Below, piece by piece: positions 11,894 to 56,967 of a stretch of 64,000 nucleotides of DNA. Origin of the DNA: Tricharina praecox (lineage: Eukaryota); NCBI RefSeq assembly GCF_024521635.1, contig NW_026250404.1:1922001-1986000 (forward strand), read 5' to 3'. Every line of letters starts with the position of its first letter. The first letter of the stretch is position 1. The translations under genes were made by a program, and so were the position numbers. A model generated the notes under the pieces. The model was not told the origin of the DNA. It worked only from the letters and a program-made list of their open reading frames with translations, and did no database searches.

Positions 11894-11987
11894 GAATTAG
11901 AGAATTAGAGAATTAGAGAATTAGAGAATTAGAGAATTAGAGAATTAGAGAATTAGAGAATTAGAGAATTAGAGAATTAGAGAATTA
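11894..11987. repeat. Perfect 8-bp minisatellite (AGAATTAG), ~12 copies
   Basis: Ten full perfect units at 11901-11980 plus partial units on both sides. Confidence 0.97.
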
Positions 11988-48907: not shown

Positions 48908-51306
48908 TCACAACGCTTTCCGCCTCGCCCTTGACCCCGCGTACTCCTTCCCGACAATCGGCTTCCCGACCGGATAAGCCGAGAACGCCAGATGCCCCGT
49001 TCCGCCCTCCTCGAAGCCGACACTGACATCTCCCCACTGCAGCGGCTTCGAAATGATCTCTTCCCTGCCGGTGTCGTCCATGGTGGGAGGATGGCAAGCC
49101 GCGCTGATAGCCGCCGAGCAGCCGCTAGGAATCGGCATGTCGTGGCGGTATTTCCGCAAGCCCATAACGATGATGACGACTATTGTCAGAGCCCCCATCA
49201 CGAGCGCCAAGATTATGGCCATGGTGCTGAAGCACACCGCGGAGAGTGTTTCAATCTCATCGAATTCCGGTGTGCCCGGTATTTTGGTAAAGTATACCTC
49301 GATTCGTGCGAGGAATATCGCCTGCGACGTGAGCCAGTGGAGGATCCCCGAGAAGACCATCAGAGTGAGGGCGAAGCGGTACGGCAGTTGGAGATAGTAT
49401 GAGCTCCGCTGGCCCTCTCGCGGGTAGGTGACCCGCAGTGGCTTTCGAGAATTGGCATAACTGTTCCATTCGAGGCACGACAGCATGCTCGTGAAAAGTG
49501 CGTTGTACATGAGGTAGAGGAAGGAGAGGATCGTCTGAGGCAAGTTGGCGAGGAAAACAGCCCCAATCAGGGGCAATTTGTACCCCAACGCAAAGACCAT
49601 GGAGCCGAAACTGACCCGCGCAAACCCGCGATCCCAAATATCTTTGAAGGTATTGGAAGGGTAGACGGACATATCCGACCGGACAGCTAGCCATAACAAA
49701 TATGCCACAGCGGCGAGACTGATGCACATGCAGAACACACTGACAATCCACCGCCTGAGACTGACGGCATTCCGCCAGTGGAATGGGCGGCGTTCCCACG
49801 GCTGCGGTCGCAAATCTCCGCTATTCCATGGTATTCCCGTCTTCCGCTGGGCCTCGATGTACTGCTTGTCGGCGTAGCAGATCCCAGCAGTATTCGGATC
49901 TGGCTTCAACAGGAAACTCTGGATTGCGTCGCCGAGGGTGACCAGCGGGATGAAGTTTCGTTCAAACAGCGTGAGGGTCATGCAGACAACTTTCACGGCA
50001 TTGCACACGATAACGATCGCTAGTATCAATGCTGAGAACTGCAGCTTGCAGGCTTCGTCCATGACTTCGGCACGGCATTCCTTGACCGGAACGACCTGTC
50101 CTTCGAGGTTTCGAACCCTCCATTCTCCACCCGATCGAACAACACCCATTATTTTGTCATCTTCTCCAAGATCCATGTAAATATACTGTTCATTCCACCC
50201 CACTGGATCAGAGAGCCATTGCCGGGGGAAAAGCGAAGGCTGGGACGTGATAAAGCCATTCAAGAACCCTTCGTTACTGTTGCCCTGTAATACCACGGCG
50301 ACATTTCTTTTTCCGGAGACGAATGTTTTGTCGTACTCGATGAAGCATTCTCGAGGCGAGATCGCCGTCCAGTTTCGAGCATGGGCGAGAAACTCTACCC
50401 ACGACTGCGGCGTGTAGTTGTTTAGGTTCGGGTAATAGGTATCTTCTGTTATTTCAGATCTGGTGAAATTCATCGTTGGAGGTTCCGACGAAAACGTATT
50501 CTCCGGAATAACAGCCACCAAGTAATCGTTTGATGCTATCGTTGTGAACGCGGCACTGTTGTATCTACGCAATATACATGTCAGTACAGCCATGCGCCTG
50601 TAATCGATGATCGGGACTTACAACAAGTGTAGCGGTACCGACGTGACTGCGAGGAACCACCACAGCACCATCCGGCTCCGCTTGACTCTCCGCAGATTCT
50701 TGACGCTCGGCACGCCGATGTCGAGCCACTCTCCCTTCGCATGGGCCCGATCGACCTCCTCACGAGTGGGGCTCGTCAAGCACTGCTGCGCATAGTTGCT
50801 GCCACTCAATGCCAGCGTGCCCAGCGCGTTGATCAGGACATGAATCCATATCGACAGCGTCTTCACTTGTGCGCAGGGGCCCTCAAAGACAACCCCCAGT
50901 CCATTGGTGACCGAAAACGTCTTCACCGCCCAGATGGTGATAAACAGATTGAGCAGGAACACCATCGACACACTGGCGATGCACCATATCAATCCTATCC
51001 GCCAGCCCGAGGTCGGTTCTCGTGGTGCCGCAGCCCGCGTACACAGCTCGCCATCGTCAGAGTCGGGCGAGTATTTCGTCGAACGGCCGCCAGCACCTCG
51101 CATCCTACATACCGCCATTACCACCGGTTAGTTTATATTTTGCATCCGCAACCCGCCCTCGGACTGGATGCTTACAATTGTAATTCAACCGCCTCGAGAG
51201 TTGTAAGTTTATCGTTCGAATGATCCACCGGTGGGTGCACGGCGTCAGTTTTTTCGCCGACATCATCGTGTTGCTGTGCTCGCGTCCACGGGAGGTGATC
51301 AAGCAT
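48908..51306 (-). CDS. DUF6536-like multi-pass membrane protein, copy 1 (intact), 3 exons
   Basis: [93 protein letters not shown]; introns 51105-51175 and 50565-50621. The start at 51306 is inferred. Confidence 0.85.
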
Positions 51307-53029
51307 TGAGGGCCAGAATTGTTGAGTATCGACTTGTGCCGTCTAGGTAGCATTTTCGGGTTCCATGTAGAGGTATTTGAACACAGCGAGACAGCCGGCT
51401 CCATGCTGGCTGGAGGTACTAGTGGAGTACCCAATGTGCTCGTCGTCTTCTTCGGAATCAGACAACCAGTTGCGTTACTCACAATTCTGATAGGGGGAAG
51501 TGGGGGGAGGTAGGGTGAGGAGACACTCTTACTGGTTTGGCGTTCCCACTTGCATGAGCCACCGCCACGCATGCCGCCTTTAAGCGATATTTTCAGCTCT
51601 CGATCGTCCACATTCGCACTGTCTCGTTACACTAACCTGCCGGCTCTCGGTCGCCCAGCATCGAGACGGTCGCTAACGAGGGGGTAGGTAATATGTGTTT
51701 CTTTTTGTTCAGCTCGATGGCCGTTCTGAGGACTCTCAATTGCCGCAGCTGCCTTCTCAGAGCGGTCGTTTGTCATTCCCTCGTTCCCAGGCCTCCTTCG
51801 CCGTCTCCGGTACTCGCAGTGGGATCGTGTCGCGGTTGCATGGCGACAATCAATGCTGGGAGAGATCTTCAATGATGCGGGGAGGGTAGGTACAAAGCGG
51901 GGACGGTCTGCACGGGGAGGATGTGCATGGAGAGGATGTGCACGGTGTTTTCCAGCCAATTGACCATCCATCAGACATCAGCCATGTATCCAACGAAGCG
52001 TGAAGACTACCGTCAAGTATCCTGAATACCGCAGCAGCAACCGGTGTAGCTACCTAAGTACTCCCTGCGAAGGAGTACTACGCCGATGGTTAACCGTCTT
52101 GCCTCAGAGTCGTGTAGATATCAGGAGCTCACATCTGCTGGGCACGAATATTAAGCTTTAGTTAGTCGTGTGGAATCTCAGGGCTGAATATAGTAGATTG
52201 CATATCTATAGGGCGACATGAGTGAGCACTAGCTGTGATGTAGGCAGGTAAATAGCACATACATACTAGTAGTAATAGTACCAGGTATGTTGCTTCCACA
52301 GTAGCCGGACCCCACGCATTTCTACGGCCAGGTCCAGGCCGTGATGTTCGCCATCATAGATGCGCTTCTTCCACGACAGGGTGCTGACTATACATACGAC
52401 TCCACGGGCGTACCGAGAGGGTCTCGTCTGCTTACTTGCACAGATGGTTAACGTTGCCTACCTATAGATTTCAACCACAGCCCGACCCAAGCTCTCGTCT
52501 GCGGAACGACCGACCTCCTCGCACTGCGAGTCTGCAAACTCATCCATCACAACGTACCTAGATAGCTCCGCAGTGTCCCCACCCCCACACCCATCGTCTC
52601 CGCAACGTTTGCTTGGATGACAACCCGGCCGCGAGTCCCAGCCCTTTCCTTCCCCCGTCTCTTATGTGCACCTATATAGAACCAAAAAGACACATCATTA
52701 GACTGAAATGACATTTGCGAGTGAGGGTCCGTGGTTCGAATGTATGTGCGTCCGGCGGCATATACGATAGTCTATCGTGAATGCGGATCATCGTCGCCTG
52801 AAGCCAGAAGCTCAGAGCCACAAGTCTCATAGGCCTCCTGTACTAGCAGGAATGCCACCCGTGTGGACTCAGAAGTTGGCCGCGATCAGCTGCTGGACGG
52901 CACAACCAGTTACGAGTGATCCAATCGAGTCCGCTCCATTTAAAGACCGAGTCGTATGTACTTGATTCCGATGTCCGAACGGACTACTACCAAACACGCT
53001 GTTCCGCTACCTCTGATCATCCGCCTCCA

Positions 53030-55326
53030 TCACCGCAGCGCTTCCCGTCTTGCCCATGACCCTGCGTACTCCTTCCCTTCTACCGGCTCGCCGACTGGAT
53101 GGGCCGAGAACGTCAAATGCCCTATTCTTCCTTCTCGATTCACAGAGCCAAAATCGACATCCCCCCACTGCAACGGGCTCGATACGATTTCCTCCCTCAT
53201 AATCTCGTCCGCGTCCAGCAGATGGCAAGCCGCGCTGATAGCCGCCGAACAGCCGCTCGGAATCGGCATGTGGTAACGATACTTCCGCAGGCCCATGAGG
53301 ATCACTGCGACTACCGTCAGGGACCCTACGGGCAGAGACACGATTATAGCAACGGTGCTGAAGCACGCCACCGAGAGCGTGGAGTGCCCGGCCTCGACCG
53401 CCTGCAGCTTCAGCAGATCGACGGGGTATATCTCGATCCGTGCCAGGAATATCGCTTGAGAGGTGATCCAGTGGAGGATCCCCGAGAGAAGCATGAGAGT
53501 GAGGGCGAAGCGGTACGGCAGTTGGAGGTAGTATGAGCTTCGCTGGCCCGACCGCGGGTTGGTGACTCGCAGTGGCTTTCGAGAATTGGCATAACTGTTC
53601 CATTCGAGGGCCGATAGCATGCTCGTGAAAAGTGCATTGTACAGGAGGTAGAGGAAGGAGAGGATCGTCTAAGGCAAGTTGGCGAGGAGCACAGCCGCGG
53701 TTAGGCTCAGGCCCATGTTGGGGTTCAGCTCAACCACGGAACCCAGCCTGACTTGGTCGAACCCACGGTTCCAGATGTCTTTGATCGTATTGGAAGTATA
53801 GTTGAACCTATCCTCCTGGACGGCTCGCCACAGCAGAATCCCCACGGCCATCAGGCTGATACACATACAGGATACACTGACAACCCACCGCCTGAGACTG
53901 ACGGCATTCCGCCAATGGTAGTGGTATGAGTGGCGTTTCCATGGTTGCGGCCGCGAATCTCCGCTGTTCCACGGTATTCCAGCCTTCCGCTGGGCCACGA
54001 TGTACTGCTTGTCGGCGTAGCATATTCCAGCAGTGTTCGGATCCGGCTTCAACAGGAAACTCCGGATTGCGTCGCCATTGGTGACCAGCAGGATGAAGTT
54101 TGGATCGAGCAGCGTGAGGGTCATGCAGATAGCTTTCACCGCGTTACACCCGACAACGATCGCCAATATCAATGTCGAAAACTGCAGCTTGCAGGATTCC
54201 TTCCGAGCTTCCGTACGGCATTCCTTAACTGCGACGAGTTCTCCTTCGAGATTACGAGCCTGCCACTCCCCACCGGATCGAATCCTGTCGATCGTCCTTT
54301 GATCGCTTATATTCCCGAAATATAGATACCTCCAACCCACCGGACGGCTGAGCCACTCCCGGCTAGTGGGCGCCGATGCGTCGACCATATAGCCATCCAA
54401 GAGTGCCTCACTGCTGTTGCCGTATAAAACCACAGCGACATTTCGGTTTCTGGAAACAAATGCTGTGTCGTAGGCGCTAAAGCATTCTCGGGCCGGGACT
54501 GCCTTCCAGTTTTGAGCCTGACCGAGGAATTCCAACCATCCGCGCCGTGCATCGTCGACATATGTTTCGTATTCTGGCGCATAAACCAAAAGCTCGTCAG
54601 GTACATCAAATCTGGTTGCATTTATGATTTGAGTTTCCGAGGATAATGCATTTTCTGAGACAACAGCCACTAGGTAATCGGTTGTCGCTATTGTTGCAAA
54701 CGCTGCACTGTTGTATCTGCACGATTTCCATGTCAGTGTCCAGTCATGTGCCATCGATTACCGTGCCTTACAGCAAATGCAGCGGTACTGAAGTGAATGC
54801 GAGGAACCACCACAGCATCATCCGTCTCCGCTTGACGCTCCACAAATTCCTGACGCTCGGCACGCCGATGTCGAGCCACTCTCCCTTTGCGTGGGCTCGA
54901 TCAACCTCCTCGCGAGTAGGGCTCATCAAGCACTGCTAAACATAATTGCTGGCGCCCAATGCCAGGGTGCTCAGTGTGTTGATCAAGACATGAATCCACA
55001 CCGACAGCGTCTTAACTTCTGCGCAGGAGCCCTCATAGACAGTTCCGAGTCCGTCGTGGATCGAGAACTTTGCCACCGCCCAGATGGTGATGATTAGATT
55101 GAGCAGGAACCCCACCGACATGCAGAGGATACACGAGATCATTCCTGTTCGCCAGCTCGAGAGCGAAGTTGGCGCGGACCCGCCACCATTGTTTTCGATC
55201 CTGCCGTCATGCCCGTCGATTAGTTTTGTACTTACTCGAAACCCCCTCCCTTTCCGGACCGAATGCTTACGGTTCGAGCTTGACAGTCTCAAAATCTACG
55301 AGTCCCTCGTCCGAATCCTCCGCCAT
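53030..55326 (-). pseudogene. DUF6536-like membrane protein, copy 2, with two in-frame TAG codons (54936-54938, 53669-53671)
   Basis: Collinear with copy 1 with the same two phase-2 introns (55201-55270, 54717-54771). No frameshift seen; both TAGs align to CAG (Gln) in copy 1. Confidence 0.8.
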
Positions 55327-56967
55327 CGAACGTACGCCGGTATCGGGTTCTTTGCAGTATTTATCGTGCTGCGGTATTCGAATCCATGGGGGTTGAACCA
55401 TTGGGGGCCCGGATTTCCTGAATATCAGAGCCCGTGCTGCCGGCGGGCTGCTTTCGAAGGTTATATACTACGCCGACATCTCGAATACTACAAGGTATCC
55501 ATATCGAATGCTTGAAAGGTACTATTCCTGCTATGTGTGTGGACACGTTTATACTAACTATCCTCCCATCCAGGCTAAACTCCGTTTTCATGAAAACTGC
55601 AGACGGAGAGCGGTCTGCTAGCGATACATAAGTATGTACGATTCTGCCGGTTTTGGTGGTGATGAGTGAGGGAGAGTTGAGGTTTATACACACCTGTATC
55701 GCCGCTCCGTTACGCATACCCGCTCCGCTCTCTGGCCCGCCTTCTTTTTCCGCCATCTCGTCGAGCTCCCACTTAACATTTTCGGTTCGCCTATCGAACC
55801 AGCCTCGTGGCAGCCATATCTATCTCTTTTCCTTCGGCCTGGTAGGTGTTCTCCAGACCTTGTCTTCTCGCCGCTTGCGTTCACCACGTTTTCCTACCAT
55901 CGGACATATGTATAGCTAACGAAGCGTGCAAGTTATGCCGGTAGATAGTCTATCTATCTACATACTTAACAGCGCACGGTAATAACGGGATGTATCCAGC
56001 CCCTGGAAAGAAGTAGTGCACTCTACGCACGTCATACATGATGTTGACCATCCCGACGGACCTTATGTACTCTTCGGAGACAACACCCACCCAGTCTAGG
56101 AGTTTAAATCCGTAGATGCAGTCAGGTATTTATATACTTACAAGTAGGATTCGCTTACAATCCGAGTGGCTGGAAATGGAGCACAGTTGCTACCTGCATG
56201 TACGTACGTGCCCACTAGTGGGCCCCTCCGGCTATATTGCGTGGCTGATCGTGATTGTCTCACAAAGTTATGTACATCTTCTCACTCGATACATACTCTA
56301 TGTCACACTGCGCACCTGTCATGGGTGAATATTTGGTCCAGCATGAGATCAGGCGGTGGGTGGGTGGGTAAGGGGAGTAAGCCGTCTTATCTAGCTGGTC
56401 ATCTAGGTCGTAAATGGATTATCCGGGGGTGCGATACCGATCATCGTCAGACGGCCCGGTACATTGTCAATCTCACACGGTCGAAGGAGTTTGAGGGAAA
56501 CAAAAATAAGCACAAACCTCTAGAGTGTGCGGGATGGTTTCCGGCAACATGGAGACAGAAGAGGAGGGAAAGAAGGATTTGGAGTGGCTACAAATGGTGC
56601 GGGTGGGTACGAGGATTAGGAGGAATTATACCGGTAGTCAACTTTGAAGCGTTAGTTGCCATTTCTCTCAAATATCATACTATTCTGTTGCCGGAGCAAT
56701 CTTTTAGACGCCTCGCAGCGAGGCTGTCCTACTTTCTGAACTTCTAAGGATCCTGGTAAGCCTTCTCCGGGACAATTGAATAAAAATTGGCGGAGGTATC
56801 AAATCTCTGAAACAGGAGCTACGGAGCTCATTCCCGATCACTCGTGCCAAGAAACGTTAGCGGCATTCTTCGTGCCGTAGGAAACCCCTGACCTCATGAA
56901 GATCCCAATAGCTCCGAAGCTCTCAATCCACCTCGTCTCTCTCATAACAAACAAACAACCACTCACC

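Follow-up and report, generated by a model that had tools for sequence, protein, structure and literature searches.

Two in-frame TAG codons in a well-preserved tandem membrane-protein gene of the cup fungus Tricharina praecox probably mark a young pseudogene

We analysed a stretch of 64,000 nucleotides (the window) on contig C17 of the 38.4 Mb, 104-contig genome of Tricharina praecox, a post-fire cup fungus (Pezizomycetes) that we take to belong to the family Pyronemataceae. Genome searches detected three copies of a membrane-protein gene with the domains DUF6536 and DUF8419: copies 1 and 2 lie in tandem within the window, and copy 3 is found on contig C27. Copy 2, with 748 codons at 53030-55401 on the minus strand, retains both introns and an intact frame, and carries TAG at two positions where the paralogs carry CAG. 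All of its features are on the minus strand. Exon 1 (55271-55401) runs from the ATG at 55401, which is homologous to the start of copy 1; this exon measures 131 nt in both copies and its peptides can be aligned. It is followed by intron 1 (55201-55270, 70 nt, GT..AG) and by exon 2 (54772-55200), which encodes the DUF6536 (PF20163) region and contains the first premature stop, TAG 1 (54936-54938, codon 132; CAG for Gln in copies 1 and 3). Beyond intron 2 (54717-54771, 55 nt, GT..AG), exon 3 (53030-54716) encodes the DUF8419 (PF28510) region with most of the hydrophobic segments and ends in a terminal TGA. The second premature stop, TAG 2 (53669-53671, codon 536), lies in this exon inside an N-x-P-Q motif. 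The context of TAG 1 is AAT TAT GTT TAG CAG TGC, with the corresponding CAG of copy 1 at 50786-50788, and the preceding codon has changed from GCG in copy 1 to GTT in copy 2. The context of TAG 2 is TTG CCT TAG ACG, with the CAG of copy 1 at 49535-49537.

An earlier note on this DNA had described the two TAGs as the sole lesions of copy 2 and its indels relative to copy 1 as frame-preserving, and we observed the same: the spliced frame contains no further stop or frameshift, and the coding indels are all multiples of 3 (3, 6, 15 and 54 nt), with gaps of 2, 3 and 4 nt (alignment columns 147, 197 and 720) found at the introns. That introns and frame are kept is thus borne out; the ATG at 55326, however, which had been taken as the start, is an internal in-frame Met, and the homologous start is the one at 55401. 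Both stop changes are CpA to TpA, as had also been noted. With TAG 1 ending translation after 131 residues, a full-length product of copy 2 is not expected.

Copy 1 (48908-51306, minus strand) is intact, with 756 codons from the ATG at 51306 and introns at 51105-51175 and 50565-50621. Both of these introns, which are homologous to those of copy 2, are skipped in the contigs of sequencing runs X2 and X3. Exon 3 of copy 1 is a 100% match to BZA05DRAFT_331044 of T. praecox, and the likely start at 51306 is 44 codons upstream of the start in the public model. The 5' leader of copy 1 is long and spliced and contains many upstream ATGs; X2 shows two further introns in it (51450-51532 and 52078-52132, minus strand). 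In the tree, copy 3 groups with copy 1 as its sister (97/99), at 84% identity, so that the two genes lying side by side are not the most recently duplicated pair. Copy 2 is 76% identical to copy 1 over 2154 columns, with shorter stretches being more alike, and about 75% identical to both paralogs. A single in-frame TAA interrupts the last exon of copy 3, at a variable site about 83% of the way along the gene (minus strand; L002:1855-1857, G000:C27 ~113462); contigs of the RNA-like runs X2 and X3 contain the sequence of this copy. Two of the three family members in this genome are thus interrupted. Predicted introns bypass the stops in the public models for copy 2 and copy 3 (BZA05DRAFT_433407 and BZA05DRAFT_409130), one of 42 nt removing the TAA of copy 3, which means that two of the three public gene models conceal stops. 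We considered and rejected the introns by which the public model of copy 2 (P0003) skips its stops, as they remove conserved motifs and have no supporting contig joint.

The N-terminal DUF6536 and the C-terminal DUF8419 place these genes in a family with numerous homologues (6743 representatives at E<=0.001), of which the named ones are from filamentous ascomycetes; many tandem copies are found in Tuber (Pezizomycotina). The protein has six hydrophobic segments. It would be a multi-pass membrane protein, in which a cysteine-containing domain probably faces outward. The AlphaFold model of copy 1 (pLDDT 87.9, pTM 0.86) has no Foldseek match at E<=0.001, its structural matches are generic helical bundles only (Z<=9.8), and no sequence relative of copy 1 was found in the PDB. 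Searches with this predicted structure thus indicate neither a function nor a new fold. A literature search for DUF6536 returned nothing on the family, only an unrelated Brucella paper, and DUF6536 is absent from one supplement file of the Fusarium paper on premature-stop-codon-correction (PSC) genes. No orthologue of copy 2 from a sister species was found in the homologue and metagenome searches, the metagenome scan yielding three loci of only 38-52% identity. The closest outside relatives (P0126 and P0256, 66%) have Gln at the TAG 2 site and do not reach the TAG 1 site.

Of eight sequencing runs, none of them recorded as RNA, we examined four (X1, X2, X3 and X7), all as assembled contigs; such contigs drop minority variants. 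In X1, a separate soil DNA run, the contigs carry TAG at both sites: a record over TAG 1 (54858-55700) has no difference from the genome, and a record over TAG 2 (53580-54074) has one. The observation of two TAGs thus stands against the suspicion of an assembly error. The one difference in the record over TAG 2 is unlocated and is the point that speaks for sequencing or assembly errors; however, as the neighbouring record also has one, it most likely falls in their 30-nt overlap (54045-54074). Furthermore, the 76 tallied differences of X1, located in copy 1 (39 in 49704-50104 and 37 in 50666-50987), match the differences between copy 3 and copy 1 in all ten change types, which leaves none for copy 2; this accounting rests on tallies, with 40 of the 82 difference rows listed individually. 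We therefore regard errors as an extremely improbable source of the stops. As X1 differs hardly at all from the genome and could come from the same clone, it confirms the bases rather than their spread within the species. X2 and X3 behave as RNA, given that the introns of copy 1 are skipped in their contigs. The cover of copy 2 in these two runs is patchy, with no splice joint on the sense strand and no contig over TAG 2; as genes cannot be ranked by contig depth and the tissue is unrecorded, we draw no conclusion from this pattern. Both runs have some cover in the bin with TAG 1, where no extra T>C or A>G was tallied among contigs of this kind, in which minority variants are lost. X7 covers only copy 1 and its upstream region.

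To describe selection on the three copies, we compared their dN/dS. The pairwise values are 0.36, 0.49 and 0.33, and the branch values are 0.60 for copy 1, about 0.30 for copy 2 and 0.42 for copy 3, with a dS of about 0.6 from copy 2 to both paralogs. Relative to the outgroup P0256 (465 columns), copy 2 shows no rate acceleration (39 vs 41 for copy 1, and 34 vs 54 for copy 3). Among 85 columns that are conserved in at least 90% of the homologues, copy 2 departs at one besides the stop, and this site is also changed in copy 1. Purifying selection has thus acted on copy 2 through most of its history. Together with the lack of acceleration, this means that the stops are either very recent or tolerated. 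In the coding sequence of copy 2, about 3.8% of substitutions make a stop, with TAG accounting for about 0.47 of the nonsense changes and CAG>TAG for 0.06-0.16. The probability that two lesions are both TAG and that no frameshift is present is 0.007-0.079 at assumed indel:substitution ratios of 0.2-0.03. Such a pattern would be uncommon for one gene, and a few cases would be expected among the dying genes of a genome.

The two stop columns differ in their conservation. At the TAG 2 column, 250 of 253 distinct homologues have Gln and three have His, and the Asn of the N-x-P-Q motif is invariant; in the AlphaFold model of copy 1 this position is placed within a long helix (493-532). The TAG 1 column is variable, with Met in 166, Gln in 43 and other residues in 11 of 220 homologues (gap in 33), and it is followed by a Gln (the CAG codon after TAG 1) that is conserved in 217 of the 220. 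Trp occurs at neither column (0/220 and 0/253), and a smaller homologue set gives the same picture (Gln in 117/117 at TAG 2, Trp in 0/87 at TAG 1). The earlier caution that editing would give Trp and not the ancestral Gln is hence borne out and strengthened, as none of the aligned homologues has Trp at either column.

The earlier note had preferred RIP-like or methylation-driven deamination of the tandem duplicate as the origin of the stops. Copy 2 does resemble the targets of RIP (RID-dependent CpA>TpA in Neurospora) and MIP (methylation in Ascobolus) in being a tandem duplicate with two C>T changes in CpA, and the genome carries cytosine methyltransferase genes, whose matched parts contain no stop. 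RIP is expected to leave many mutations in both copies. The partner copy is untouched. We counted changes as specific to copy 2 where copies 1 and 3 agree, an unrooted comparison that includes the stem to copies 1 and 3. Among the 308 such changes, C>T exceeds T>C (106 vs 83). By context, C>T affects 15/172 CpA, 13/163 CpC, 17/186 CpG and 17/143 CpT sites; there is thus no excess at CpA (15/172 vs 47/492 elsewhere, Fisher p=0.88) and none at CpG (17/186, p=1.0). On each of the three branches C>T is the most frequent change, without context bias. The product index (0.57) and the substrate index (1.29) of copy 2 are like those of copy 1 and outside the thresholds for RIP (at least 1.1 and below 0.9, respectively, in the excerpts of PMC3778014), the composite index is -0.72 (-0.73 in copy 1), and GC3 is 0.665 vs 0.69. 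According to the same excerpts (PMC3778014), RIP acts on repeats of more than 400 bp that are at least 80% identical, and just 0.46% of the Pyronema genome appears to be affected by it; the copies described here are 76% identical. A RIP-like signal has been reported in Tuber (excerpts of PMC7882544). Taken together, classical RIP is refuted, and we consider it highly improbable that RIP or methylation-driven deamination made the stops. Sporadic deamination of two methylated cytosines is possible.

We next consider whether the stops could be corrected in the RNA. In the excerpted sources, Pyronema confluens, which belongs to the same family, has 2772 sexual-stage A-to-G sites, of which 149 are stop-loss (PMC5381528), and its sexual-stage A-to-I editing is also described in PMC11156358; in Pyronema and its kin, Ame1 is duplicated and editing arose independently (bioRxiv 10.1101/2023.10.18.562923). 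In T. praecox we found two intron-poor DUF726 genes that are 50% identical, L040 (G000:C2) and L041 (G000:C39), and a more distant third (33%), in which a flagged TAG lies at an intron donor. Judged by sequence, the pair appears Ame1-like, consistent with the Ame1 duplication in Pyronema, and sexual-stage mRNA editing may operate in T. praecox. Copy 2 could then be a PSC gene that is silent in mycelium and in which a Tad2-Tad3-Ame1-like complex edits both UAG to UGG in fruiting tissue, so that a full-length protein carrying Trp132 and Trp536 is made. Editing only in apothecia would here place Trp at a near-invariant Gln, recoding and neofunctionalising the paralog rather than restoring it, by a Pezizomycete editing system independent of that of Sordariomycetes. 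Copy 2 resembles the PSC pseudogenes of Fusarium graminearum and other Sordariomycetes (e.g. PUK1; excerpts of PMC10776026 and PMC11156358) in having in-frame UAG codons as its only lesions, with introns and frame intact, in its public model that skips the stops by predicted introns, and in its host lineage, which probably edits. Two-site cases exist as well: in the excerpts on Fusarium, two sites are found in 6 of the 71 PSC genes and up-regulation in perithecia in 55, and TGG is the main source of the TAG, although other codons often give rise to it (PMC10776026); the edited residue need not be ancestral (excerpts of PMC13431901). In contrast to these pseudogenes, copy 2 is in a Pezizomycete, neither of its stops derives from TGG, Trp occurs at neither column (a typical, not an obligatory, PSC feature) and one site is a near-invariant Gln; its stops are not known from any other species, and its editing would be hypothetical. 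No Pezizomycete PSC gene is named in the literature searched, as far as the excerpts go, and the Pyronema site table, which lies outside them, may hold some. If editing did restore copy 2, it would represent convergent stop-codon correction in an independently evolved Pezizomycete editing system.

The editing context of the two stops was scored by the rules for Fusarium (bases -2 to +4 and a hairpin loop; excerpts of PMC9600606). TAG 1 has five of the six preferred bases and a predicted hairpin loop, whereas TAG 2 has four of six and is predicted to be paired in a stem. Among 116 control codons, 30 score at least five preferred bases and 41 are in predicted hairpins, and the local folds at TAG 1 and TAG 2 are no more stable than shuffles (TAG 1 z=-0.14). 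The point raised earlier that U at -1 favours editing does not discriminate, as every UAG has it. Correction of both sites is thus favoured by the editing in Pyronema, the putative Ame1 pair and the good preservation of copy 2; against it stand the Gln-to-Trp change that it needs at a 99% conserved helix position, the Trp that it needs at the TAG 1 column, the context of TAG 2, and copy 3. The latter is broken by a TAA, from which a single A-to-I event cannot yield a sense codon, showing that this family takes non-correctable stops in T. praecox. We regard two-site editing as unlikely. Given a dN/dS well under 1 and a lineage in which an editing system is probably present, stage-specific rescue retains a low probability. 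In a two-step variant, copy 2 would have been a PSC gene with a single site, TAG 1, that was genuinely edited and accepted Trp at a variable Met/Gln column; TAG 2 would be a recent killing lesion, or would be edited weakly and uselessly. This variant gains from the better context of TAG 1, to which the change from GCG to GTT supplies the preferred U at -2, and from needing only one lesion after death, which fits the lack of decay; however, Trp is also absent from the TAG 1 column, the fold is no more stable than shuffles and about a quarter of the control codons match the context quality of TAG 1, so that we give it a slim chance, below that of editing at both sites. Alternatively, read-through or an amber suppressor tRNA would insert Gln at both UAG and restore the ancestral protein. 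Both ancestral residues are Gln, and TAG 1 is followed by CAG, similar to the context of read-through in yeast. Yet this CAG just encodes the conserved second Gln, the codon after TAG 2 is ACG, and two low-level events would multiply. No CTA anticodon was seen among the 45 tRNA loci read or the matches to a Gln probe (63 of about 999 candidates scored), and the six tRNA-Gln-like genes found with this probe all have CTG. TAG is not reassigned, as it ends other open reading frames in the window and the in-frame TAG of the clathrin gene (18797) is intronic. We consider read-through or suppression very unlikely.

In our judgement, copy 2 is probably a young unprocessed pseudogene in a decaying three-gene family; the weights that we give to the explanations are judgements and were not computed. 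Copy 2 combines disabling lesions with a signature of past constraint. TAG 2 replaces a Gln that is found in nearly all homologues and sits in an unremarkable, predicted paired editing context, neither stop goes back to TGG, the codon from which edited stops in Fusarium chiefly arise (excerpts of PMC10776026), another family member is also interrupted, and C>T is the commonest change throughout. We suggest that an old duplication of the gene for a multi-pass membrane protein (DUF6536 and DUF8419) would have produced copy 2, which would have worked under purifying selection for most of its past. An ordinary C-to-T transition in a codon for Gln would then have inactivated it recently, and a second such transition would have followed before frameshifts or much decay accumulated. 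As copy 1 is intact and may be redundant with it, the loss of copy 2 would be tolerated. The order and timing of these events, like the absence of a protein, are what we infer from the pattern of changes. Some observations fit this explanation less well: there is almost no decay, the branch dN/dS of copy 2 is the lowest of the three, both lesions are of the one editable kind, TAG 1 lies in a favourable context and two Ame1-like DUF726 genes are present. Compared to other young pseudogenes in birth-and-death families, copy 2 is alike in being an old duplicate with past purifying selection, few nonsense lesions, an intact adjoining paralog and another interrupted paralog, but differs in having two stops of the same type, no frameshift and almost no other decay. 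As a young pseudogene, copy 2 shows turnover in an unstudied family of fungal membrane proteins.

Lastly, we note some further observations on this genome. On the plus strand, single contigs skip GT..AG segments at 54598-54672 (X3) and 55516-55572 (X2), which suggests antisense transcription, with splicing, over copy 2 and the region upstream of it. At 48986, the contigs of X3 and X7 have C>T relative to the genome, which is absent from X1 and X2 and points to a second allele or strain. Copies of the same tRNA gene tend to be grouped on particular contigs, for instance many tRNA-Lys (CTT) genes on C94, tRNA-Gly (TCC) on C22 and tRNA-Arg (ACG) on C28, and also on C39. The window furthermore contains a perfect 8-bp tandem repeat of about 94 bases at 11894-11987.
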